From contig JAUSHJ010000045.1 of assembly GCA_030648615.1 (NCBI GenBank), positions 25,071-89,070 of the forward strand: a stretch of DNA of 64,000 nucleotides. The letters run 5' to 3'. The position numbers and the translations under genes were made by a program. Below the pieces are notes generated by a model. That model was not told the origin of the DNA. It saw only the letters and a list, made by a program, of their open reading frames with translations, and ran no database searches. Origin of the DNA: Candidatus Micrarchaeota archaeon (GTDB taxonomy: Archaea; Micrarchaeota; Micrarchaeia; Anstonellales; Bilamarchaeaceae). Position 1 is the first letter of the stretch, and every line of letters begins with the position of its first letter. This document shows positions 7,695 to 52,704 of this stretch, one piece after another.

Positions 7695-7775
7695 CCCAAT
7701 TGTTGCAATGCAACAATGGGCATCTTGTCGCTCAACGCGACAAGCTTGTTGTCCGTTAGGACAATTCATATGAAT
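7695..7775. repeat. hairpin-cluster repeat element, copy 1 (upstream of the ribosomal operon)
   Basis: cccaattgttgcaatgcaacaatgggcatcttgtcgctcaacgcgacaagcttgttgtccgttaggacaa: three consecutive TTGTYG/CRACAA stem-loops plus the AATGGGCATCTTG linker. Confidence 0.8.
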
Positions 7776-41321: not shown

Positions 41322-41855
41322 TTATATCGATAATTTTACGTAATCAATCAAATCATAACGCATACTTAATCCACTTTTTCTTTTCTTGGCCAAGTTCTGT
41401 ACGAAGCCGAGTTTCATATAGAAATCTATTGCTTTTTCGTATGCGTCAACAGTTACAAACCTACAACCAATTTCCTTAAGGATAGAAGATGCAATTTTAC
41501 CCATAGCTACCTTAACTAAAAATGTACCTATGCCAAGCTTTGCAAAATTTTTATGAACTGCCAACCTGCCTATCTTAACAGCTGGATATTCCCCCAACCT
41601 TTGTTTTGGTTCAGACATTGCTTCTTTTTCTCCTAAATCTAAACGGATGGAATCTGAAGAAAGACTAAAATAACCAACAATTTGGTTTTTGTGCAAACAT
41701 AAATAGGTAATTGCTAAAGCACCATTTTGATAAAGTAAAGCATCATCTTTAAGAAAAGAATTAAGATCTGAGTCACCACAATCAAAAGCAAGTAGATCGA
41801 AACCCGCTGAAAGTTTTACGATATCCAATTTATTAAAATCTATAATGTCTTGCAT
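41322..41855 (-). CDS. GNAT-family N-acetyltransferase (possible TA-type toxin)
   Basis: 177 aa; acetyl-CoA-binding motif A RLAVHKNFAKLGIGTFLV; preceded by a 50-aa co-oriented ORF. Confidence 0.7.
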   Translation of the reverse strand: MQDIIDFNKLDIVKLSAGFDLLAFDCGDSDLNSFLKDDALLYQNGALAITYLCLHKNQIVGYFSLSSDSIRLDLGEKEAMSEPKQRLGEYPAVKIGRLAVHKNFAKLGIGTFLVKVAMGKIASSILKEIGCRFVTVDAYEKAIDFYMKLGFVQNLAKKRKSGLSMRYDLIDYVKLSI

Positions 41856-42111: not shown

Positions 42112-42777
42112 GTGAACAATAAACTACTTATGGCAACACAATTAATTAACAGAAAAACTGCACTCACAGAGCTCACAAGAATTCTTAAAAAAATAGATAG
42201 ACGAGAAGCTTTTCATGAAGTCGGAACTTTAATTGAAAAAATATTCGATCCAAAAACGCCTACATACGAACTGGACAGATTTAAAGTACAGATAATTTTT
42301 TATGAAAACGGAAAGCACATGCTAATTCCTCTGGACACAAAAAAAGCATATGAAGAACTCAGACAAGCATTAGATGAAGTTCTGCGTTTACGAGGCTATA
42401 GAAGTAATATACTGACATATCAGGAACATTGTCTACTAGGAAGCACTCAATCAGAAACTTTTGCCAGAGACCCATATAAACCAATAGGAATACTAAGGAG
42501 GGAATTAGGAATAGAAGAAACAATGCTTGCCAGAAAACTAGAATTGAAAGGCGGTGCCAGAGCATACTTCTACGGATTAAAAAGAGAAGGTATTATCGGA
42601 GTAACTACTTCGCTTGAACCACTTGATACAGAAGGAAGAACAGTGAGAGACCCGAGACCCATTAGCATGGAAAAATTGGATGAAGCACTAGCAAAAGGAA
42701 TACCACTGGAACAAATATTCGATCTCTGTGTAATTCCGTTCGTGAAGGATCCCGAATTTCCATTTAGAAGAGAGTAG
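42112..42777 (+). CDS. hypothetical protein (221 aa)
   Basis: ORF only. Confidence 0.4.
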   Translation: MNNKLLMATQLINRKTALTELTRILKKIDRREAFHEVGTLIEKIFDPKTPTYELDRFKVQIIFYENGKHMLIPLDTKKAYEELRQALDEVLRLRGYRSNILTYQEHCLLGSTQSETFARDPYKPIGILRRELGIEETMLARKLELKGGARAYFYGLKREGIIGVTTSLEPLDTEGRTVRDPRPISMEKLDEALAKGIPLEQIFDLCVIPFVKDPEFPFRRE

Positions 42778-43515: not shown

Positions 43516-44739
43516 TTATTTTTTCTTTGTTGTATCTGCACTGGTATTCTTTTTGAATTTCTTATAGATTTTGTATATCACAAAGATAATGATTACTGTA
43601 GGAAGCAGGAATCCGATTAATCCGGATAGCACCAGCAAAGCAGCTGATAGAGCAGCAAAGAATGTCCCTGTAAGATCTTCCAAAGGCAATTGGAGATTTG
43701 TCTTAACAGTAGATTTATCTTCTGTAAGTGTTACATAGACAAGAGACTTCTCCGGTCTATTCTTCTCATCAACATCTTTGCTTAGTTGTTTGACTTCTCC
43801 CAGAGCCTTGGCTTTCTCCATGAAAGAATCGAGCTTGTTCGAAGAAACTTGCACTACAGCATAGTATGTTTTCTGACCTGTTGATTCTACGAATCTAAGA
43901 GAACTGATTGATCCTCCTTCATCTGCAACTACAGCCTTAAGCGAATCAAGTGAAGTTGAAAGTTTCCCCTCATTTACCTTAACAGTCATATCTCCTTCTT
44001 TTGCTTCCGATGCAGCAACATCTTCATAGAGATCAAGAGTTATTGTTGACTTTTGTATCTTCCCTTCAAGTGTCCCCTTTTCATTTTTTAACTGTTCTAT
44101 TTCTGTTTCTATTCTTGTAATTTCTCTCTCAACAGTTATCAAATCTTCTACTAGTTCACTTTTATTATAAAGAATATAAAGTCTCTGCAACTCGATGTTT
44201 TTGTTTTGCAATCTTAGATCCAGATCACGATATTGTTTTGTAACATCTTCGATATTTACATTTGCTCCTTTTAATTCACCTAAATTTTTCAACTGTTCAA
44301 AAACACTATCAAATTTTTCAGGAGAAATCTTAAATGAAATAGAATAATGTTTTTGACCACTATATTCATCGTAAGATGTTGAAATTACGGTTCCACCTTG
44401 GGTTTCTACTATGCCTGTGGCTCCCTTTACTTTTTCATCAAGCTGACCACGTTCAAGCTTTATAGATATGGAGCCTTCTTTTGTTTTTAACGGCTGTTCA
44501 CCAGTAAACGTATCTGAAACCTTAGCTTCGTAATTAGCCCCGTCACTTAATGGAGCGTCTGAATAAGAAATAGAATTCTCATCTGAAAATGTATTAGAAG
44601 AAGATGTTACAGGAAAATAATCTGAACTAGATATATCATTTTTTTGTTCAGTAGTAGAATTAATTCCGGATAGACCAGCACATCCTGCAGACAGCAAGAA
44701 AATTCCAAACAGCAAAATAAAGAAAATGTTCAATTTCAT
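43516..44739 (-). CDS. coiled-coil lipoprotein with internal duplication and C-terminal transmembrane anchor (DUF4349-like architecture)
   Basis: 407 aa; lipobox LLSAGC, S/T-rich linker, two repeats (IVETQGGTVISTSYDEYSGQKHYSISFKIS and VVADEGGSISSLRFVESTGQKTYYAVVQVS), central heptad-rich segment, C-terminal transmembrane helix plus KKFKK. Confidence 0.6.
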   Translation of the reverse strand: MKLNIFFILLFGIFLLSAGCAGLSGINSTTEQKNDISSSDYFPVTSSSNTFSDENSISYSDAPLSDGANYEAKVSDTFTGEQPLKTKEGSISIKLERGQLDEKVKGATGIVETQGGTVISTSYDEYSGQKHYSISFKISPEKFDSVFEQLKNLGELKGANVNIEDVTKQYRDLDLRLQNKNIELQRLYILYNKSELVEDLITVEREITRIETEIEQLKNEKGTLEGKIQKSTITLDLYEDVAASEAKEGDMTVKVNEGKLSTSLDSLKAVVADEGGSISSLRFVESTGQKTYYAVVQVSSNKLDSFMEKAKALGEVKQLSKDVDEKNRPEKSLVYVTLTEDKSTVKTNLQLPLEDLTGTFFAALSAALLVLSGLIGFLLPTVIIIFVIYKIYKKFKKNTSADTTKKK

Positions 44740-44847
44740 AATTTATATTAAAAAGTAAAAGAATAAGAATGATTCGAATTTGTTAACATTTGCCCTAAAC
44801 ATTTTACTTTCTAGCAATCGCTCTGCCCTCTAGCAATAACTCTACCT

Positions 44848-44980
44848 CTCAATTGTCCAATATTTTGGACAACATTATTGTCCAGCGGGACAATATGCAT
44901 CTTGTTGCTCATAGCAACAAGCTTTGACGCATCTGCGTCAAATTTTGTCAGGATTTTTATCATCCTGACAAAGCTTGTCT
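44848..44980. repeat. hairpin-cluster element, copy 5
   Basis: ttgtccaatattttggacaa, then ttgtccagcgggacaa, then atgcatcttgttgctcatagcaacaa, then tttgacgcatctgcgtcaaa, then ttgtcaggatttttatcatcctgacaa. Confidence 0.85.
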
Positions 44981-44985
44981 ACCAA

Positions 44986-46035
44986 CTATATTAACTTAAT
45001 TAACCCTCTTCCTATTTCTGGAATATTCCCACCGAGCAGACTAGTTGTTGAAAGTACGAATGAAAAAACTATTACCATTGAAATCATTGGCAAGAAACAT
45101 ACTGATACGGTAAGTTGTTTGAGAATTGCAGGCGAAAGGACATTGGTCAATGAATCTATGTCGCCCCTGTAAGCATTAATCCATGAATTAACCTCATAAA
45201 CTTTTGATGGATTAGCATAGCCACAGTATTGAACTTCTTCAAGAGCAGGTAATGCACATACGTAAGCCACTGGATTATGAGTAATAGAATTAGAAACAGC
45301 GGTTGGATCAGCTAAAGTGGGTTGACCCATAAAACTTGGTCTTATAACAGGCAAAGAAATCGCTGATGAGATAATATAGGTAAACGGAAATATAAAATAC
45401 AACCCTAAAGAAAGCGCCATAACATAACCTCCTGCACCTCGAGTAGGTGGAAATGCACGAAGAATAACACCTAAACTTAAAATGAAAAGACCATATGAAC
45501 CTATGAACTTAGATATGTGAATAAGCAGATAATAAAAAAACATGTAGAATTGTGTTAATTCTGTGGCATTTTTTATGCGCTCAGCAAGTATCTTAAAACC
45601 AAAACCGCTTGCATGCTCACTCATGAATATTTCCATATATACAGATGTACCGGCTTCAACTGGTATGCTAGCGACATAGAGAGAACGCATTAAAGTTCGA
45701 GCACATGCTGCTGCCGGATCCATGTACATTATCATAATATCAGTAAGATGTGTACCAGGAGGAAAAACAATCTGACCTGGAAGTAAGCCTACTGAAGTTG
45801 CATAAAGATTCGTAGCTATACTTACTAGCATGCTCTCTCCGCCTGTGACAAATGTAATTAACATGAGAACTATAAAAACAGTTGAAATTGCATAAATAAG
45901 TTCAGTTTTGGCTGTCTGCTCAAGATTTTTTAGATCAAAGACTTTGGAAAACATGTATACTATTGCTGAGGCTATGATAGCTACCATGGAAACTGAAATA
46001 GCAATACCTTCCCAACCTACCACGTATTCTACCAT
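44986..46035 (-). CDS. polytopic membrane protein, FPPTR-loop family member P6
   Basis: 349 aa; N-terminal transmembrane helix, YMFSKVFDLKNLEQTAKTELIYAIS, loop ILRAFPPTRGAGGYVMALSLGLYFIFPFTYI, C-terminus GGNIPEIGRGLIKLI. Confidence 0.7.
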   Translation of the reverse strand: MVEYVVGWEGIAISVSMVAIIASAIVYMFSKVFDLKNLEQTAKTELIYAISTVFIVLMLITFVTGGESMLVSIATNLYATSVGLLPGQIVFPPGTHLTDIMIMYMDPAAACARTLMRSLYVASIPVEAGTSVYMEIFMSEHASGFGFKILAERIKNATELTQFYMFFYYLLIHISKFIGSYGLFILSLGVILRAFPPTRGAGGYVMALSLGLYFIFPFTYIISSAISLPVIRPSFMGQPTLADPTAVSNSITHNPVAYVCALPALEEVQYCGYANPSKVYEVNSWINAYRGDIDSLTNVLSPAILKQLTVSVCFLPMISMVIVFSFVLSTTSLLGGNIPEIGRGLIKLI

Positions 46036-46036
46036 T

Positions 46037-47266
46037 TTATATCAGCCTCGTAAGTGAATTGACATCTATTTCTTCGCCCAATGTCTTACTAAGATATTTA
46101 ACACTTTGAACAAACAATAATACTTGGAATGCAGGTAATAAATAGCCTATTACCAGTCCCATACCAACAGTAGCCATAGGTATTAGAAATGCGGTTGTTA
46201 CAGCAGCACCGAAAGCTACGGAAATCAGTTTACCTATCATGTCCAAAAAGCCAACGGTAACATTTTTGAAAAAATCAAAAATAATATCTCCCGTGTTCTT
46301 GGACTGTTCTTTTAGCGAGTCTGCTTTAGAATCTACAGTATGTGCAGTAAGGCCATAGATAGTAACACTTGCAAAATTATTTATATTATTATCGTAGACG
46401 TTTATTATGGAATCACTAGTTGTGAACAGCATTATGTATGAGGCATTTACATAGAGAGGATAAAGAAGCATGAAACCTATGGCTAACGCTATCAACGTCC
46501 CACCAAATCTACGAGTTGGAGTAAAACAGCGGAGAAATATACCTATTGGAAGATAATATTTTAGACAAGCTGCAATGGCAAATTTTAGTACGTTCAACTG
46601 TGCGATATTAATAATGAGTGCAATTGCCAGTGAAGTAAAAACATTGTAAATCATTTGTTTTAAAGGTGCGGCAAAACCAGCACCTGGAGTAGCAACTATA
46701 CCTACACCCAATGGTCTTGAATATGGAGTAATGGAAGCTAATTGATCGAGCCAAAGGTTTAGTGCATAATTAACATGCATCCAACCTTCAATCTTATCTG
46801 TTATTGAAGTGAAATATTTTTCAGTAGTATCATAAAAACCTAAACTACTGATAGCAGGATCAGTAATACTGGGAAAAACTGCCCCTAGCGTAAGAGAACA
46901 CATTGGAACCATGGCAGCTATGAAAGAACCTACAATGATTACACTTGCAAAAACTTCAAATAATTCTAATTTTACAAAACTTCTAATAGTATCAGTTTTA
47001 AAAAAATAGGAAAACATGTAAAGAAAAGTCAACAGCATGATAGATGCTACGATAGCTAATGGCCAAAATGGGACCCAGGTAGTCCAGAAATCTGAATCGG
47101 CAGCACCTTGAGAGCATATGAAAGCCTGGAGAGAAGAATTTGCAGGTGCACCTCCTTGACCACCTGTGGATGGTGTAGAACTCAGCCCTTCCATAGTACA
47201 ACCTGAAAGCAAAAGTAGAATTGCAAATGAAAGGACATAGAATAGTTTTTTAGTCATCATATCCAC
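46037..47266 (-). CDS. polytopic membrane protein, FPPTR-loop family member P5 (lipoprotein-type signal)
   Basis: 409 aa; LLLSGC lipobox, YMFSYFFKTDTIRSFVKLELFEVFAS, loop FLRCFTPTRRFGGTLIALAIGFMLLYPLYV, C-terminus EIDVNSLTRLI. Confidence 0.7.
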   Translation of the reverse strand: MDMMTKKLFYVLSFAILLLLSGCTMEGLSSTPSTGGQGGAPANSSLQAFICSQGAADSDFWTTWVPFWPLAIVASIMLLTFLYMFSYFFKTDTIRSFVKLELFEVFASVIIVGSFIAAMVPMCSLTLGAVFPSITDPAISSLGFYDTTEKYFTSITDKIEGWMHVNYALNLWLDQLASITPYSRPLGVGIVATPGAGFAAPLKQMIYNVFTSLAIALIINIAQLNVLKFAIAACLKYYLPIGIFLRCFTPTRRFGGTLIALAIGFMLLYPLYVNASYIMLFTTSDSIINVYDNNINNFASVTIYGLTAHTVDSKADSLKEQSKNTGDIIFDFFKNVTVGFLDMIGKLISVAFGAAVTTAFLIPMATVGMGLVIGYLLPAFQVLLFVQSVKYLSKTLGEEIDVNSLTRLI

Positions 47267-48537
47267 CTTGCAAAAGACATAAAGTTAACATCCACACTCA
47301 ACCAACTCGCCACTTCTCTTGCAAATGTCAGAGTCGTAAAAATATTTATGAATGGCAATAATATGCTTATTATAACGATATAATAAATCGCACTTCGTAT
47401 GAGTTCAAACGCGGTGGTAAGTCCTGCACCTATAAAGAAAGGCACGAATACCCCAGCAGCCAGGAATGAGATTGAAACTACAGTAAGTCCTACTCCCAGA
47501 AGGCCGCTATTAGTTACAAAATCAGTCATAATGCTCTTCTGCGACGTTACATCTACACCTAAACTATACTGAAGAATAGTATGTGCTTCATGAGTTACTA
47601 AAAACATAAACGGATACATTATCGCAAAACTAAAGAAAAGCGCTAATATTGCATCTCCAGCACCTCGTAGTGGTGGAATTGCCCTTAGAACTACACCTAG
47701 AGGAATGAAGAATGTCCATGTCCATTTTTTTATCATGCATAGCATGACTAAATGTATTATCCACTCACCTAAACCTACGGAAAGAAGCTGCATTGTAAAA
47801 CCCAGCATATCGACTATGGGCTTAAGTATTGGACCTAAATTAAATGAAAACATAGCACGCCAGGTTATTCCAAACCACATGGTAGCACTGAAAAGAGTAT
47901 GAATTATTGTATTGTATATCAAAAGAAAACCATAGGCTGAAGAAATTTCAGCTATCATTTGCCTGGAAAATGCCATAGATGCATCTATCATCGTATTCTG
48001 CTGGAGAACTGGATCGGTAGTGGTAAATGTTTTAAATCCATACCAGGTTTGACTTGCTTGCATAAACATAACTATGAATAGCAAAGCCAGAACAGTCCTG
48101 CCAAGTTCAAACATCAAATCCTTTGATACAGCAACAAGATTCTGAGACTGAAACAATTGACTAAACATGTAAATCAGGATTGCAACAAAAAGCACAATTA
48201 GCACAGACATGATGACATAGTTAGTCCATTCTGCACCGAATATGGTTAAATATTCTTTTGGAACACCTGGAACAGTAGAAACCCAGGATGTACCGCAACT
48301 ACCTGGGTCCACAATATCATAAATAGTACTTGCTGCAGCATTTGCTTGAGCACCCCCTCTTGTAAAACCAGGAATGTCATTAACGAATTTACTTATGGTG
48401 TCAATTATACCAGTACTTGGAGGGGGTGAAGTCTGCGCAAATGAAATTGTAGAAAGCAGTAGCACTAGTGCAACCACGAAAAATATTTTTTTGTTATCCA
48501 GTTTGTAATTCATAGAATCATCAGTTTGCTTTGACAT
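47257..48537 (-). CDS. polytopic membrane protein, FPPTR-loop family member P4 (signal peptide; start uncertain)
   Basis: Start at MSKQTDD (48537) or MNYKL (48513); the longer listed ORF runs into a hairpin repeat; loop VLRAIPPLRGAGDAILALFFSFAIMYPFMFLV. Confidence 0.65.
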   Translation of the reverse strand: MSKQTDDSMNYKLDNKKIFFVVALVLLLSTISFAQTSPPPSTGIIDTISKFVNDIPGFTRGGAQANAAASTIYDIVDPGSCGTSWVSTVPGVPKEYLTIFGAEWTNYVIMSVLIVLFVAILIYMFSQLFQSQNLVAVSKDLMFELGRTVLALLFIVMFMQASQTWYGFKTFTTTDPVLQQNTMIDASMAFSRQMIAEISSAYGFLLIYNTIIHTLFSATMWFGITWRAMFSFNLGPILKPIVDMLGFTMQLLSVGLGEWIIHLVMLCMIKKWTWTFFIPLGVVLRAIPPLRGAGDAILALFFSFAIMYPFMFLVTHEAHTILQYSLGVDVTSQKSIMTDFVTNSGLLGVGLTVVSISFLAAGVFVPFFIGAGLTTAFELIRSAIYYIVIISILLPFINIFTTLTFAREVASWLSVDVNFMSFARWI

Positions 48538-48552
48538 CTTTGATGTCAAATA

Positions 48553-48636
48553 TCCCAATTGTCGTTTGACGACAATGGGCATCTTGTTGCTTCAAGCAAC
48601 AAGCTTGTGTCAGCATTTTTCTGCCCTGCTGACAAT
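48553..48636. repeat. hairpin-cluster element, copy 6 (inside the membrane-protein array)
   Basis: cccaattgtcgtttgacgacaa, then tgggcatcttgttgcttcaagcaacaa, then ttgtgtcagcatttttctgccctgctgacaa. Confidence 0.85.
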
Positions 48637-48678
48637 GCTCTGCTGTGCAAATCTGTAAAGTAACATAGTTACTTCACA

Positions 48679-50034
48679 TCATATAAGGTGTGTTAAACCA
48701 GCTATTTCTACATCTCCACCCAAAGTTATTGAAATACTTCTTATTGCTGCAATGGTTGCAAGAACTCCGAAGAATGAAAAAAATACAGAGAAGAAAGTTA
48801 ACCTTGACACAACATCCATTACTCCACCGTCTTCAAGTGAAATGGATACGAAATTATCATAGAATTTTTTCTTTCCCAGATTACCTGTAAATGTAGTACC
48901 AACACCTTGTAACTCTTTTAAGTCAGCATCACTCAACTGATTCGTACGAGCAGTTAGATCTGCATCACCATTAGGTAAATTTAGATTAACACTTGGGAAA
49001 TAACCATCTGGAGAAGCACCATCTGCAATTTTATCTCTTGTAACTTGAGGCTCAACTCCAACTAAACTATAATAATCAAGCTGCTGCTGATTGAGGTCGT
49101 AACTGCCAGTGAGAAGTGGCACTTTACCGTTTATATAAAGATGATCTGCAATAGATGGGATATTATCAGGACCAAGGTATGCGGCATGCTGTATAGAAAT
49201 GGCTAACATTGCACCAAAAACATAGAACATAGGAAATATATAGAATAGTGCAAGAGCGATAGCCATGAGCAAACCCCCAAGACGCCTAGTAAATGAAAAT
49301 GTCCTAAGTACAAGACCAACAATGAAGAGATTTGGAAATAGTGCCTTTGATACAAAAGCTATTAGTATTTCCTGAAACTTGGTAAGCGTCATCATCTTCA
49401 TAGCAAAATCAAACCCAGCAGTCTTCATCGCATTACCCATGGTAAAAAAACCACGCCAGGGAGTTATGGTGAAGAAACCTGCTTTGTCAGTAACGAATTC
49501 GATATTTATCGCAAAATCAGCTATTGTTGAAGTAATCATGTATGATTGATAAATCTTAAATGCAACGTTTGAAGTTTCTTGGAAAATAGTATTTAAATAA
49601 TATATGGAAAGACGAATATGGCAATGAGGTATGTCAGCATAGGGAGAAACTGAACTAAGTGCAAGTGGATCTGCAGCTCTATCGTAATTAGTACCTGGTG
49701 CAAATGAGCATATATCCTGAGTTACATATTTACCTGGATTTGCAGCATCTGGAAAAAACCCTTGAGTAAGATACGAAGGATTAGACCCAGAGGAATCGTG
49801 CAATATCCCATAAGCAACACTGTCAAACATACCTATCCAAGAGAAAACTGCAGCAAGAAGAATCAGTGAATAAAATATTTCAAACAACTCTAATTTTGCC
49901 CATAGTTTCATCTTGTCATCTACAAGAACACTACCGAACATATACACCAGTGAGACTAGCACGGTACTTATTACCACTAATATGACCGCAACGAAACTCC
50001 ACGAAGAATATAATGCAGTTAGTGAATCAACCAT
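48679..50034 (-). CDS. polytopic membrane protein, FPPTR-loop family member P3
   Basis: 451 aa; YMFGSVLVDDKMKLWAKLELFEIFYS, loop LVLRTFSFTRRLGGLLMAIALALFYIFPMFYVF, C-terminus GGDVEIAGLTHLI. Confidence 0.7.
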   Translation of the reverse strand: MVDSLTALYSSWSFVAVILVVISTVLVSLVYMFGSVLVDDKMKLWAKLELFEIFYSLILLAAVFSWIGMFDSVAYGILHDSSGSNPSYLTQGFFPDAANPGKYVTQDICSFAPGTNYDRAADPLALSSVSPYADIPHCHIRLSIYYLNTIFQETSNVAFKIYQSYMITSTIADFAINIEFVTDKAGFFTITPWRGFFTMGNAMKTAGFDFAMKMMTLTKFQEILIAFVSKALFPNLFIVGLVLRTFSFTRRLGGLLMAIALALFYIFPMFYVFGAMLAISIQHAAYLGPDNIPSIADHLYINGKVPLLTGSYDLNQQQLDYYSLVGVEPQVTRDKIADGASPDGYFPSVNLNLPNGDADLTARTNQLSDADLKELQGVGTTFTGNLGKKKFYDNFVSISLEDGGVMDVVSRLTFFSVFFSFFGVLATIAAIRSISITLGGDVEIAGLTHLI

Positions 50035-50038
50035 AGTA

Positions 50039-51034
50039 TCAACTACTTTTTCCAGATAGGAATTTCATAAATGCGTTTATAAACGCAAGAGTTATCGTCG
50101 CTGAAAGGGCAGGAATAAATAAACTCGGTATTGATAACGCCCCTAGCGATTCTATTATGGGAAAGAAAAATGCTGGAGTTGCTATTATATTGACTCCGAA
50201 TTCTGAGAAAAGAAACTTTACAAATGGGGCAATAATGGGAATTCTTCCAAGTGGATTTTGATTATTACCAAGAACACCGAACAGAACCCATTGACCGCCA
50301 CAAAGCATAGTAACATCAAAAGTTTTTCCAGAATATATCTGGTCAGGCTTAGGGAAACCCATCAGTTGATCGTTATAAACCTGCATACTCAGGATATATG
50401 TAAGTGGAAAAACTGACTGAAAACCTATTGCTATGGCTATCAGAAATATACCTGCCTGTCTAGTTGGTGGAAAGAACCTTAGAATAATACCTGCTGGAAA
50501 TACAAACGGCAGCAATATGGCATCGATGATGACGAAAATAGTAGACTGTGCGGTAAGGCTCCCGTAAACTGCTATAAGTCCGTAGCCAACAACATTAGTT
50601 ATGGAAACCAGAGAATCTATACCTGGAAATAGTTTATAAGACAGAGTAAGTACGTACTCCCCAATACGTCTTTGGAAAGTACTAAGAACAGAAAGGCATA
50701 CCTGAGCCCTGAAAACATCAGTTATGGCATTTTGAGTACTCTCTCTTATTTGATAGATATAACCTATGGCAATATCTATGGCAGATTGAGAGGAACCACC
50801 CCCAACAATATCTGAAGCAACTGTGGAAGCAATGAAATTAGAAGATTCTAAGAAAGCTATGGAAAATATTACTATCAACAATGAGACAAAAACCTCTTGA
50901 AGTTCTATATTGAAATATGCTTCCAGTTCATTAGACTGAGTAAGTTTAGCTGCCATATAAGTAAGTGCTAGGAAAATAGTCATGATGAAGCCCATGATGA
51001 ATATTACCCAACCGTAGATAGCTATGTCAACCAT
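50039..51034 (-). CDS. polytopic membrane protein, FPPTR-loop family member P2
   Basis: 331 aa; YMAAKLTQSNELEAYFNIELQEVFVS, loop ILRFFPPTRQAGIFLIAIAIGFQSVFPLTYI; lacks the shared C-terminal tail. Confidence 0.7.
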   Translation of the reverse strand: MVDIAIYGWVIFIMGFIMTIFLALTYMAAKLTQSNELEAYFNIELQEVFVSLLIVIFSIAFLESSNFIASTVASDIVGGGSSQSAIDIAIGYIYQIRESTQNAITDVFRAQVCLSVLSTFQRRIGEYVLTLSYKLFPGIDSLVSITNVVGYGLIAVYGSLTAQSTIFVIIDAILLPFVFPAGIILRFFPPTRQAGIFLIAIAIGFQSVFPLTYILSMQVYNDQLMGFPKPDQIYSGKTFDVTMLCGGQWVLFGVLGNNQNPLGRIPIIAPFVKFLFSEFGVNIIATPAFFFPIIESLGALSIPSLFIPALSATITLAFINAFMKFLSGKSS

Positions 51035-51036
51035 TT

Positions 51037-52704
51037 TTACACCAATTTTGTTAATCCTGCTATTTCAAGTTCCCCACCTATTATGGCTGCAACATTTCGA
51101 TACATTGTAATTGTAAATATTATTTCTAAAACTGAAGTTATTATTATTAATACGATCAATTGAGAAACGGTAACTACTTCATCTATAATGAATTTATAAA
51201 GCCCAGAAGTAGATGCAGATGGGAAGAAAGGATTATTTGATAACGGATGGTGAATTACTTCTGCCATTGCACCTACAAATCCGGAAGTCATAGACCACAT
51301 AAACTTGCCTATGGTAAAAATATTATCCGTTGCAGCTGACAGAACACCTCCAAAATTAGATATGAGTTTCTTTCCGCTACACAGAAGACCCCAGAAACCG
51401 CTTCCGCATGCAGCCTGAACCTGGAACTCAGTTAATGTTTCTGATGCGAATTCATCTGTAAGCTCATCTTTTTTGTGTTCAGTTTCAATATCTACAAGTT
51501 CCTGTATTTTAGCTGGGTCAGGATTACCTAGCGGACTTATGGTTTTCGGAACATAGTTGAAATCTGCGGGTTTATATACATCAAATATCAAATAATTTGA
51601 AAAAAGAACTGAAAGCGGATATACATAAAATACTACGAACGAAATTGCGATAAGGCTCGAACCGGTTTTTCTTGTCATTGGAAAAGCTCTGAAAACTATA
51701 CCCAGAGGCAGAATTATCAGGGGGATTATATCTCTTGCAAAACCAAGAATTATTTGTTTTGCCATGATCGCAGTTATTACAAAACCTATTGCTTCTACAA
51801 CAACCGTATGTGCGTTACTCAGAAGCACAAGCCCGTCATAGGGCATAAATGAAAATGTGACTAGATTTACCAAAGGCAATGGAGAACCTAGAGGAAACGA
51901 TAAAGTTGAAAGAAAACCTATGAGGACTTCAAATAGATAAAGCTGGCTATAGGTAGCACGCATCTTTTCGAATAGTATATCAAGAGCTGCACTTGCAAGA
52001 TAAATGTGAGGAGAAACTGAAATTTCTGGACTTGTGGCATGGGCAGCAATAGCATCACCAACATTTGGTGAACCTGCAGTCAATATGCCAACTATCAAAT
52101 TAGGCAAATATGCATTACTTGCAAGCCAAAACCAAACTATAATCACGCTGAATATTGTTGCGGCTAGTTCTTCCTTGGCTATGGCACTTAGGGGTGGATG
52201 CTGAAAGAAATATGCCATCATGTAAGTGGCTGCTGTTATGAGCATGCAAAGCGTTATGGATTTGAGAACTGGGAGATATATAAGACTAAACATCGACGGA
52301 ATACCAGAGTCTGGATGCTCTATACCTTGAAGTGCGACAGTTGTGAGAATAGGGCTAAGTACAAATGCTATAATTGCAGCAAAAAGTGCTCCCAAAAGTA
52401 GATTGTGAGACCATACTACAGCACGTGCCCTAGTTTCTGCGCCTGATAACTGACCGACAACATAAACTAATGCTGCGAACATTATCATCATCATTATGCC
52501 GATGGGAACCCAGGAGCCATAAAGGTCAAAAAAGGCACAAATCTCATATGAAACCGTACCTGGTACGGGAGCATTTATTCGGTGTAAATTACAAAAATCT
52601 TCAACACCCTGGGCGGAAACGATATTACTAACAGAAATAAGAAAAAATACGATAAGAAATAATTTTGTAACTGTACCTGAGGGTAGAATAACACGATCTG
52701 CCAT
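51037..52704 (-). CDS. polytopic membrane protein, FPPTR-loop family member P1 (signal peptide, largest)
   Basis: 555 aa; signal LFLIVFFLISVSNIVSAQG, loop IVFRAFPMTRKTGSSLIAISFVVFYVYPLSVL, C-terminus GGELEIAGLTKLV. Confidence 0.7.
   Translation of the reverse strand: MADRVILPSGTVTKLFLIVFFLISVSNIVSAQGVEDFCNLHRINAPVPGTVSYEICAFFDLYGSWVPIGIMMMIMFAALVYVVGQLSGAETRARAVVWSHNLLLGALFAAIIAFVLSPILTTVALQGIEHPDSGIPSMFSLIYLPVLKSITLCMLITAATYMMAYFFQHPPLSAIAKEELAATIFSVIIVWFWLASNAYLPNLIVGILTAGSPNVGDAIAAHATSPEISVSPHIYLASAALDILFEKMRATYSQLYLFEVLIGFLSTLSFPLGSPLPLVNLVTFSFMPYDGLVLLSNAHTVVVEAIGFVITAIMAKQIILGFARDIIPLIILPLGIVFRAFPMTRKTGSSLIAISFVVFYVYPLSVLFSNYLIFDVYKPADFNYVPKTISPLGNPDPAKIQELVDIETEHKKDELTDEFASETLTEFQVQAACGSGFWGLLCSGKKLISNFGGVLSAATDNIFTIGKFMWSMTSGFVGAMAEVIHHPLSNNPFFPSASTSGLYKFIIDEVVTVSQLIVLIIITSVLEIIFTITMYRNVAAIIGGELEIAGLTKLV

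Follow-up and report, generated by a model that had tools for sequence, protein, structure and literature searches.

The Ced and Ted systems, the DNA importers of Sulfolobales and Thermoproteales, consist of a VirB6-like protein (CedA/CedE or TedA), a VirB2-like pilin (CedA1 or TedC) and a VirB4/HerA-like ATPase (CedB/CedD or TedB). CedE is a VirB6-like paralog that Sulfolobales also carry. The N-terminus of CedA has been reported to be homologous to the CedA1 pilin (PMC9905601), and in R388 helix alpha-1 of VirB6 recruits VirB2. Rickettsia has five tandem VirB6 paralogs that are ~80% divergent, and its type IV secretion system (T4SS) genes are split into islets. In Patescibacteria, the chromosomal T4SS has been reported to be essential for epibiotic growth.

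We found no literature linking Micrarchaeota with such a system. In this study, we analysed a 64,000-nucleotide stretch (the window) of contig JAUSHJ010000045.1 from a Micrarchaeota metagenome-assembled genome; the host is a DPANN archaeon, as the initial annotation of this DNA had supposed. Six membrane proteins encoded in it, P1 to P6, most likely make up the membrane platform of a machine that is related to bacterial conjugation (type IV secretion) systems and has not been described before.

The P1-P6 array in the window and in other Micrarchaeota

The P1-P6 genes are co-directional at 44986-52704 on the minus strand and are followed by a gene for a DUF4349 lipoprotein. The seven minus-strand ORFs (555, 331, 451, 441, 409, 349 and 407 aa) have the positions, lengths and junctions given in the initial annotation. 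P1 and P2 are separated by 2 nt, P2 and P3 by 4 nt and P5 and P6 by 1 nt, and P4 overlaps P5 by 10 nt. Bigger spacers lie between P3 and P4 (48583-48678) and between P6 and the lipoprotein gene (44740-44985, with four stable stem-loops in succession); the fold z-scores of their stem-loops are -4.7 and -8.6, respectively. A 36-nt element is common to both spacers, and their stem-loops include a repeated element on the minus strand at 48579-48606 (AAGCTTGTTGCT-loop-AGCAACAAGATGC) and 44897-44924. The true start of P4 is probably Met24, at ~48513; the consensus of the P4 orthologs starts at this residue, and the ATG called for P4 (48582) falls within the repeated hairpin element.

P1 to P6 are mutual paralogs far above chance by both BLASTP and profile-profile comparison, as had been claimed. 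Pairwise BLASTP identity among them is 21-43%, and when the profiles of the six ortholog groups were compared with each other, every pair reached a probability of 97.5-99.9% (E 1e-12 to 6e-25). They have in common a loop, [FL]RxF-P-x-T-R, called the FPxTR loop here. On the minus strand, it reads FRAFPMTR (51670-51693) in P1 (51037-52704), LRFFPPTR (50459-50482) in P2 (50039-51034), LRTFSFTR (49285-49308) in P3 (48679-50034), LRAIPPLR (47665-47688) in P4 (47257-48582 as called; with a signal peptide), LRCFTPTR (46511-46534) in P5 (46037-47266; with a lipobox-type signal, LLSGC) and LRAFPPTR (45439-45462) in P6 (44986-46035; listed as the shortest VirB6-like paralog). Eight positions are invariant in all six proteins (Y161, M162, G335, R339, R345, G348, A353 and P363 in P1 numbering), and these columns bear out both the conserved Y-M segment and the loop of the initial annotation. 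Searches of Pfam and NCBIfam gave no match of P1 to P6 to a curated family, in keeping with the initial annotation, which could not place the loop in any family known to it, and no confident profile match to a characterised family was obtained over the FPxTR loop.

The order of P1 to P6 never varies, and their orthologs are 1:1, with ~40% identity, in ~45 complete arrays of other Micrarchaeota, which were drawn from 58 species-level Micrarchaeota loci and a few extra fetched contigs; the family comprises 2877 cluster representatives. The view of P1 to P6 as old, divergent paralogs in strict synteny is borne out by these arrays, and because of this divergence and synteny a hetero-oligomeric complex fits better than recent duplication. 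Archaeal T4SS-like genes are often plasmid-borne (PMC12102498), so P1-P6 might serve mating-pair formation in an integrated conjugative element or a plasmid. Mobile DNA of this kind is very improbable here, since the surroundings of the array are housekeeping genes (in almost every genome examined it is flanked by genes for LeuRS or AspRS, for RNA polymerase subunits, for a PIN_5 nuclease and for an RNA ligase), the 1:1 orthology tracks the phylum, and neither an integrase, a relaxase nor a compositional anomaly was found.

The lipoprotein (43516-44739, minus strand, 407 aa) has a lipobox, two DUF4349 stretches (PF14257, E 7e-43), a coiled-coil segment and a C-terminal transmembrane (TM) helix. 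It had been counted as a member of the array. However, none of the other array-bearing loci that were fetched has a DUF4349 homolog within 10 kb of P1-P6, and by this comparison of loci the lipoprotein gene is probably an adjacent gene outside the conserved system.

Membrane topology and resemblance to VirB6

Loop charge and cysteine statistics, taken together with AlphaFold models, argue for five membrane-spanning segments in each core in place of the 6-9 TM helices proposed earlier, with the N-terminus outside and the C-terminus inside. On which side of the membrane the FPxTR loop lies had been left as a question; the cytoplasmic side is favoured. The charge and cysteine statistics also place a large loop outside after TM2. 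The core would begin with an N-terminal helical hairpin of TM1, a short basic cytoplasmic loop and TM2, followed by an extracellular region that is large and acidic and contains cysteines. A hairpin of TM3, the FPxTR loop facing the cytoplasm, and TM4 would come next, and a second extracellular region would lead to TM5 and a short conserved cytoplasmic tail. This tail, GG-x-x-E-I-x-G-L-T-x-L-I, is recognisable in four of the six paralogs (GGDVEIAGLTHLI in P3 and GGNIPEIGRGLIKLI in P6, for example) and diverged in P4, and P2 is the only one that lacks it. The five-TMS model of Agrobacterium tumefaciens VirB6, as cited in PMC2653234, has the same topology.

The best structural match of the P1-P6 family is VirB6; for two of the paralogs it is either the top match or the longest one. 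The initial annotation had set VirB6/TrbL aside; this exclusion is not supported in view of the structural match and of the T4SS-like gene neighbourhood in relatives, which contains pilins and an ATPase of the CedB/CedD/VirB4 family. P1 to P6 gave no match at E <= 1 to VirB6/TrbL in Pfam and NCBIfam, and hhalign gave probabilities of <3% against VirB6, whether the VirB6 profile was narrow or broader. The motif L-P-x-G-I-x-L-R-x-F-P-x-T-R is in register with G-P-x-F-I-x3-L-W-x-P-T-x-R of VirB6; the motif match is weak, and the local alignment outscores 146 of 150 column shuffles. No residue that is invariant across P1 to P6 corresponds to the essential Trp of VirB6. The link to VirB6 stands on structure and context; neither a significant profile match nor sequence-level homology could be demonstrated.

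Pilin-like domains and the linked ATPase

P1 has the N-terminal signal peptide that had been recognised, but its first ~130 aa also include a separate VirB2/TrbC-like two-helix pilin domain (residues ~34-123; 52336-52605, minus strand) in front of the VirB6-like core. This domain is 35% identical over 91 aa (tblastn, E 2.9e-9) to a free-standing 114-aa pilin-like protein of locus L071, and an alignment contains the common motif Y-x2-GQ-x2-GAETRARA-x2-W. The top Pfam matches of the free-standing small proteins are TrbC and T4SS_pilin; those of L071 matched PF04956 (TrbC/VirB2, E 4.4e-5) and PF18895 (T4SS_pilin, E 8.7e-6), both just below the cut-off. The complete small protein of L074 matches the pilin-domain profile that we built. 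The pilin-like domain of P1 in the window itself had no Pfam match. Among 36 pilin-like segments, T4SS_pilin was matched by 4 and TrbC by 1, amid spurious matches to TM families, and the segments did not match solved pilins or TrwL. In the clade of the window the pilin-like domain is joined to the N-terminus of P1, and in most other Micrarchaeota P2 is ~515 aa long with two tandem pilin-like domains at its N-terminus. These P1 and P2 fusions are a Rosetta-stone link between pilin and platform, in agreement with the R388 and CedA cases.

In Ca. Fermentimicrarchaeum and its relatives, one operon comprises two pilin-like genes, the six paralogs, two ~270-aa proteins and an ATPase. One or two proteins of ~105-116 aa are encoded upstream of the six genes in relatives, and two paralogous ~270-aa proteins and the ~512-aa ATPase downstream. 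The full arrangement is present in L071/L072, in the P0263 contigs and in Ca. Fermentimicrarchaeum limneticum (L074), whose genome is complete. The statement that no ATPase is adjacent is correct for the window but fails for such genomes, in which the ATPase module directly adjoins the array. The window contains neither the ATPase nor the ~270-aa proteins, and most genomes lack them within 10 kb of P1-P6; the module lies apart from the array in the single further Micrarchaeota genome that was inspected. The ATPase clears the Pfam thresholds of DUF87, AAA_10 and P-loop_TraG, and in NCBIfam it scores best against CedD, CedB and VirB4-like conjugation ATPases. Among solved structures, HerA matches slightly better than VirB4. 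ATPase homologs 59-84% identical to the query come from diverse Micrarchaeota. Further conserved partners are a ~250-aa coiled-coil/wHTH protein, a ~800-aa protein and, in some lineages, giant secreted proteins.

P1 to P6 might instead form a lineage-specific membrane complex unrelated to T4SS, with a likeness to VirB6 that is convergent or a generic similarity of long helices; the ATPase and pilin-like linkage in one order would then belong to another machine, such as one for envelope, adhesion or a cell-cell bridge. This is essentially the view of the initial annotation. We regard it as unlikely, though a serious competitor, because independent weak signals agree: the VirB6 match in two paralogs, the Pfam matches of the small proteins, the nearest models of the linked ATPase, the topology and the pilin-platform fusion. 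Chance would need to yield all of these together. Immediately upstream of the complete cluster, the L071 and P0263 contigs carry PMT/PMT_2 glycosyltransferase genes, an STT3/AglB gene is close to the ATPase module in L073, and P1 to P6 have large cysteine-bearing extracellular loops, all of which would suit a complex for envelope biogenesis or for the handling of glycans or lipids (such as a flippase, a polymerase or a platform that glycosylates S-layer or pilus components) instead of a translocation channel. Such a complex is improbable, as no GT-C, Wzy, flippase or MOP similarity was found in Pfam, NCBIfam or fold comparison, the glycosyltransferase neighbours are missing from the window and most loci, and a pumping ATPase of the FtsK/HerA superfamily is unexpected in such a pathway.

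Proposed apparatus and known systems

With somewhat better than even confidence, we regard P1-P6 as a VirB6-like platform of six paralogs in a Ced/Ted-like apparatus that derives from a T4SS and has become fixed in the chromosome. The best reading is that this apparatus is phylum-typical for Micrarchaeota and of the same general kind as the Ced/Ted systems for DNA transfer in archaea. The comparisons show that P1 to P6 are paralogs, that their order is conserved, that their fold resembles VirB6 and that the other genes are linked to them in relatives; the stoichiometry, the coupling to an ATPase, the substrate and the transport direction are inferred. A pseudo-symmetric ring may form from one copy of each paralog; it would recruit VirB2-like pilin modules (fused to P1 here) to assemble a short pilus or tube or hold it in place. 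The cytoplasmic loops and tails of the ring would couple to a hexameric ATPase of the CedB/CedD/VirB4/HerA family whose gene would lie at another locus. Such a machine might pass a macromolecule between the archaeon and its partner cell, either DNA, by analogy with Ced/Ted, or other cargo. If so, it could be a route of material exchange between Micrarchaeota and their hosts.

Bacterial VirB6 has a like inferred topology (N-out, five TM, C-in), a functional link to VirB2-type pilins and, between two hydrophobic helices, a similarly spaced P...aromatic-x-P-T-(x)-R motif; long, largely hydrophobic helices are also found in TrwI of R388 (PDB 7o3v; VirB6/TrbL, PF04610). However, TrwI is a homopentamer and carries VirB5, whereas P1-P6 are six paralogs with larger extracellular insertions than VirB6, and VirB5 was not found in their system. 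The Rvh T4SS of Rickettsiales (RvhB6a-e) likewise has tandem, divergent VirB6-type paralogs, clade-wide in genome-reduced, host-dependent organisms, and its genes too are dispersed over several chromosomal islets. The Rvh copies are five, bacterial, diderm and much larger (670-1150 aa) and, unlike P1-P6, are recognisable TrbL/VirB6 domains beside virB3 and virB4. The Patescibacteria (CPR) T4SS is near-universal and chromosomal in ultrasmall episymbionts and comprises VirB4, VirB6 and VirB2-like pilins (PF04956/PF18895), but it is bacterial, of MPF-FATA type, has recognisable VirB4/VirB6 profiles and lacks a six-paralog platform.

No sequence similarity to the CedA or CedB equivalog models was detectable at their thresholds. 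Ced/Ted hosts are free-living Crenarchaeota, whereas the Micrarchaeota are DPANN symbionts. The Micrarchaeota set, unlike Ced/Ted, occupies two separate loci (judged from the single typical genome in which the ATPase locus was inspected) and adds partners, namely the ~270-aa pair, the coiled-coil/wHTH protein, the ~800-aa protein and the giant secreted proteins; it has six obligatory paralogs in fixed order against one or two VirB6-like proteins. Nevertheless, both are chromosomal, domesticated, T4SS-like archaeal systems with a two-helix pilin-like protein, a 5-TM VirB6-like protein and an ATPase of the FtsK/HerA superfamily, and both lack VirB3, VirB8 and the outer-membrane core. The N-terminal hairpin of the platform is reported to be pilin-related in CedA/CedA1 and is related to, or fused with, the pilin in Micrarchaeota.

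Layout and conservation of the six-gene array

The layout of seven minus-strand ORFs described in the initial annotation was seen in full: the six paralogous membrane-protein genes P1 (51037-52704, 555 aa), P2 (50039-51034, 331 aa), P3 (48679-50034, 451 aa), P4 (47257-48582, 441 aa), P5 (46037-47266, 409 aa) and P6 (44986-46035, 349 aa), followed by a lipoprotein gene (43516-44739, 407 aa). Within the two blocks, neighbouring genes are 1-4 nt apart or overlap by 10 nt, as had been described. Stable stem-loops follow one another in both of the longer spacers, P3-to-P4 (RNA-fold z-score -4.7) and P6-to-lipoprotein (-8.6), which have a 36-nt element in common. The called start of P4 (ATG, 48582) falls within a hairpin element. 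Since P4 orthologs begin at the equivalent of Met24, translation probably starts near 48513 instead, which would make the P3-P4 spacer ~165 nt long.

An intergenic hairpin element, AAGCTTGTYGC-loop-GCRACAAGATGC, occurs in three copies (7720-7747, 44897-44924 and 48579-48606, all on the minus strand), where none is expected by chance. The stem of the copy at 7720 is preserved by a compensatory T>C / A>G change, and the two copies in the array spacers are accompanied by 3-4 other stem-loops. It may terminate transcription, mark a site of RNA processing or be a dispersed repeat.

The proposed paralogy of P1-P6 was borne out by BLASTP identities of 21-43% and by hhalign probabilities of 97.5-99.9% between all pairs of ortholog groups, for which the alignments were built from other genomes. 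Among the columns that never vary between the six are the Y-M pair that follows the first helix and, surrounding the conserved [FL]RxF-P-x-T-R loop (FPxTR loop), G...R...R..G....A.........P, so both of the shared segments that had been pointed out are present. With the six-paralog profile, 2877 representatives of 50%-identity clusters matched at E <= 1e-3, and 1965 of them reached E <= 1e-10. Named sources among these matches were Micrarchaeota or Microcaldota, plus a few MAGs labelled 'Candidatus ainarchaeum sp.'.

We surveyed 58 species-level genome loci around P1 orthologs, in which ORFs were called and then classified against the window proteins. Every contig long enough, ~45 in total, carried a complete array in the order P1-P2-P3-P4-P5-P6 on one strand, which upholds the strict synteny claimed initially. 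Each array gene is the reciprocal best match of its window counterpart with ~32-45% identity, and shows ~20-28% identity to the other paralogs. The same six types in the canonical order were found in three divergent loci, including that of Ca. Fermentimicrarchaeum limneticum (L069, L071 and L074). The paralogs thus form six distinct ortholog groups and are old, as had been suggested; recent tandem duplication is ruled out by these groups. In one divergent Micrarchaeota MAG (AB1468 tags; P0202, P0230 and P0233), three family members lie on separate short contigs and their tag numbers are far apart; this may reflect a split array or merely a fragmented assembly.

PIN_5 and RNA ligase genes recur downstream of the arrays in relatives, and upstream is either LeuRS, in the clade of the window, or AspRS with SurE. 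The lipoprotein was correctly assigned to DUF4349 with two stretches (PF14257, E 7e-43, 146.8 bits against a cut-off of 27.7). Its inclusion in the array is not sustained: no homolog lies near any other array, so it is not a conserved member and was dismissed as a component of the system. Homologs of the window DUF4349 gene, a 195-aa divergent ORF, a GNAT acetyltransferase gene (41322-41855, minus) and a 221-aa ORF (42112-42777, plus) were absent from all other fetched loci. The latter two sit between the RNA ligase and PIN_5 genes of the window, which are neighbours in many other Micrarchaeota genomes; the 221-aa ORF had no family match.

P1 is identical to hypothetical protein Q7S22_05685 of a Candidatus Micrarchaeota archaeon MAG. 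Other genes of the window encode RNA polymerase subunits, MCM, LeuRS, a Trm5-like methyltransferase, an ABCE1-like protein, RNA ligase and PIN_5 nuclease. GC content is uniform throughout the window, and tRNA and Rfam scans of it gave no match. The setting of the array is the core chromosome; a mobile element is ruled out by the housekeeping-gene context and the conserved synteny.

Predicted topology and possible kinship with VirB6

Every ortholog group has its own conserved motifs upon a common scaffold. Charge and cysteine statistics were collected from 47-58 orthologs per group by counting K+R, D+E and Cys in each loop. The N-terminal end is acidic, the TM1-TM2 loop is short and rich in lysine and arginine, and the long region after TM2 is net acidic with conserved cysteines. 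In the FPxTR loop there are 1-3 K/R (2-3 in all groups but one) and few or no acidic residues; the second long region, after the FPxTR hairpin, is acidic again and the C-terminal tail slightly basic. Read with the positive-inside rule, the pattern fits five TM segments with the N-terminus outside, L1 inside, L2 outside, L3 inside, L4 outside and the C-terminus inside, and the helix layout of the structural models agrees. Five TM segments are thus favoured over the 6-9 TM helices of the initial annotation. The same rule predicts that the FPxTR loop faces the cytoplasm together with the conserved tail, GG-x-x-E-I-x-G-L-T-x-L-I. P1, P3, P5 and P6 have this tail; it has diverged in P4, and P2 lacks it. 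P1, P4 and P5 have a cleavable-looking signal or lipobox; P2, P3 and P6 begin straight at TM1.

This predicted topology is that of VirB6, which has an outside N-terminus, five TM segments, a large outside loop after TM2 and a cytoplasmic C-terminus. In AlphaFold models (P1, pLDDT 76 and pTM 0.65; P3, pLDDT 84 and pTM 0.83) the array proteins are all-alpha; their helices are very long, reaching ~50 residues, and in part hydrophobic far beyond the need of a bilayer. VirB6 of plasmid R388 (PDB 7o3v) has seven long helices, five of them mostly hydrophobic, and only alpha-1 and alpha-2 constitute its membrane part (PMC9259494). This description fits the odd helix lengths of the models.

The array proteins had been described as a family with an unplaceable motif, and this held in the searches of family libraries: no Pfam family matched P1-P6 at E <= 1, the gathering score of the PF04610 (TrbL/VirB6) HMM was not reached, and NCBIfam, PHROGs and PADLOC gave no match. 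The six-paralog alignment profile found only noise among PDB sequences, and a Foldseek search of the PDB with the P1 model gave no match. We also built a narrow profile of TrwI, the VirB6 of R388, and a broader VirB6 profile from ten further plasmid genes (11 plasmid VirB6 and 15 TrwI relatives). With hhalign, the probability was <= 1.5% for ortholog-group profiles against the narrow profile and <= 2.8% against the broader one for every paralog group and the merged family.

In these alignments hhalign registers L-P-x-G-I-x-L-R-x-F-P-x-T-R of the array on G-P-x-F-I-x3-L-[WF]-x-P-T-x-R of VirB6, with identical spacing of Pro, aromatic, Pro and Thr. The score of this segment, which was picked post hoc, was 15.4, column-shuffled controls gave 10.0 +/- 2.1, and 4 of the 150 controls scored at least as high; the motif match is suggestive at best. 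With regard to the essential Trp of VirB6, no Trp is invariant across P1-P6. The tentative motif alignment pairs the Trp/Phe position of VirB6 with a Phe of the array, which lacks the downstream F-x2-W. Since the profile tests were non-significant and an invariant Trp is absent, PF04610 membership is not established, and we describe P1-P6 as VirB6-like in topology, context and, tentatively, fold. The main rival explanation, which we consider unlikely, is that P1-P6 form an unrelated, lineage-specific complex whose fold features are convergent.

Pilin-like domains and the ATPase module

A complete co-directional cluster was found in contigs of the family representatives P0263 and P0244 (the latter L071 and L072) and in the complete genome of Ca. 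Fermentimicrarchaeum limneticum (L074). It consists of two small proteins of 104-116 aa, the six paralogs in canonical order, two ~270-aa mutual paralogs with an N-terminal TM hairpin and a soluble domain, and a ~512-aa ATPase. Further members are small proteins of ~95 and 120-145 aa, a ~257-aa coiled-coil/winged-helix protein, an ~800-aa protein and sometimes a giant secreted protein.

The small upstream proteins of L071 have a pilin-like architecture, namely a signal peptide and two hydrophobic helices with a short basic loop between them. Their best Pfam matches were PF04956 TrbC/VirB2 (E 4.4e-5, 24.1 bits, cut-off 27.9) and PF18895 T4SS_pilin (E 8.7e-6, 26.2 bits, cut-off 26.6), each slightly below its gathering cut-off. 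The pilin call is weak, since T4SS_pilin matched only 4 of 36 segments and TrbC one of 36, amid spurious matches to TM families. The pilin-domain profile matched neither TrwL nor PDB sequences, solved pilins included, and did not match the cores of P3-P6; a match in P4 covered the signal-peptide region only.

A free-standing pilin-like protein of L071 matches residues ~34-123 of P1 (35% identity over 91 aa, E 2.9e-9), so the ~130-aa N-terminal extension of P1 is, judged by sequence, a signal peptide plus a pilin-like two-helix domain. This domain carries the family motif Y-x2-GQ-x2-GAETRA[KR]A-x-[VI]W, and in the window it has no Pfam match of its own. In most other Micrarchaeota, P1 is ~420 aa and P2 is ~515 aa with two tandem N-terminal pilin-like domains, which explains the size dimorphism of P2. 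Thus the domain occurs in two copies in P2 (L004, L005 and L010-L055), in one copy in P1 (the window and L006-L009, the LeuRS-linked clade) or free-standing (Fermentimicrarchaeum-like genomes), and has shifted between subunits. A module that stands alone in one lineage but is joined elsewhere to one platform subunit or another argues for physical interaction. The CedA1 pilin has a homolog in the N-terminus of CedA, and a similar relationship links VirB6 with VirB2 (PMC9905601); the putative pilin-platform fusions echo, by analogy, this kinship.

In Pfam, the ATPase clears the cut-offs for DUF87 (the central domain of HerA), AAA_10 and P-loop_TraG. Its best NCBIfam matches were CedD (4e-19) and CedB (8e-17), parts of the archaeal Ced DNA-transfer system, then two VirB4-like conjugation ATPases (~1e-13) and HerA. 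All of these scores lie far below the equivalog cut-offs (CedD, 68.5 bits against 600; CedB, 61.1 bits against 700), and P1-P6 matched none of the Ced models in NCBIfam. Among solved structures, HerA (~4e-14) came before VirB4 (3e-8). The best 120 homologs are from diverse Micrarchaeota and have 59-84% identity to the query. In the typical genome L073, the module has its own locus apart from any six-gene array, with a ~270-aa protein, the ATPase and proteins of 136, 250 and 855 aa. The remark that no ATPase is adjacent is right for the window; the ATPase and its partners are missing from it and from the 10 kb around most arrays.

The last ~90 residues of the ATPase are homologous (39-49% identity) to a 93-99-aa protein directly downstream in L071 and L074, that is, a stand-alone ATPase C-terminal domain (compared regions: L071, 12247-14102; L074, 10001-11842; L073, 10001-11569). 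Giant Cys-rich secreted proteins (>2700 to >3100 aa) flank the array in divergent lineages (L069, 12524-19532; L074, 15677-21539; the P0263 contig), and P1 of L069 (3302-5584) has a ~400-aa Cys-rich extracellular N-terminal extension. They could belong to the same machine as adhesins or parts of its tip. In two lineages (L071, 569-2089; the P0263 contig), genes resembling PMT/PMT_2 protein mannosyltransferases immediately precede the complete cluster, and an STT3/AglB gene lies ~8.6 kb upstream of the separate ATPase module (L073, 1-1360). These genes may be a hint that pilin or surface components are glycosylated, or their location may be a coincidence.

A candidate T4SS-derived apparatus and its known counterparts

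We lean towards the view that P1-P6 are the platform of a T4SS-derived apparatus of the Ced/Ted kind that has been fixed in the chromosome of Micrarchaeota. A VirB6-like platform would have diversified into six obligatory paralogs, which may form a 1:1:1:1:1:1 pseudo-symmetric ring. Such a ring is suggested by the fixed number and order of the genes, the subunit-specific motifs and the absence of the tail from one subunit only. Its six-fold symmetry would match a hexameric motor of the HerA/VirB4 type, with the cytoplasmic FPxTR loops and C-terminal tails as possible docking surfaces and the ~270-aa TM proteins as candidate connectors. The cargo may be DNA, as in Ced/Ted, or other host-derived macromolecules. 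A bolder version, to which we give little probability, is a core, phylum-defining T4SS-derived machine in which six VirB6-like subunits make a hetero-hexameric channel matching the hexameric ATPase, unlike the bacterial homopentamer, and serve as the symbiont-side uptake conduit for host macromolecules.

How DPANN archaea draw on their hosts to meet their needs is a question of long standing, for which molecular candidates are, to our knowledge, scarce. The locus provides a concrete gene set conserved across the sampled Micrarchaeota, composed of six VirB6-like subunits, pilin-like modules and an ATPase module. In a full-text literature search, no paper linking Micrarchaeota to VirB6, VirB4, VirB2, T4SS or Ced was found, and the Micrarchaeota genome papers that were checked do not mention the system. 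Cryo-ET of the envelope of Micrarchaeon ARM-1 revealed a 21-nm barrel-like docking platform (bioRxiv 10.1101/2024.05.20.594898); that this barrel is the product of the array system is pure speculation.

T4SS-like systems are already known from archaea. Nanohaloarchaeota have giant proteins with VirB4/TraG-like domains (PMC10266531). Patescibacteria, which among bacteria correspond to DPANN, almost universally have a chromosomal T4SS, and their epibiotic growth depends on it (PMC12102498); if our reading is correct, T4SS-derived machines would reach a DPANN phylum, paralleling this essential system of bacterial CPR. The base of R388 VirB6 is pentameric, and it recruits VirB2 pilins via alpha-1 before they are polymerised (PMC9259494). 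The array would exemplify, in nature, how a homo-oligomeric secretion platform can diversify into heteromeric subunits that are fixed. There is precedent for VirB6 paralog arrays in Rickettsia, which has five divergent VirB6 copies and scattered T4SS islets (PMC2653234), and Bartonella genomes encode several distinct TrwI/VirB6 proteins. The six-gene array may thus have a bearing on the VirB6 paralog arrays of Rickettsiales and Bartonella.
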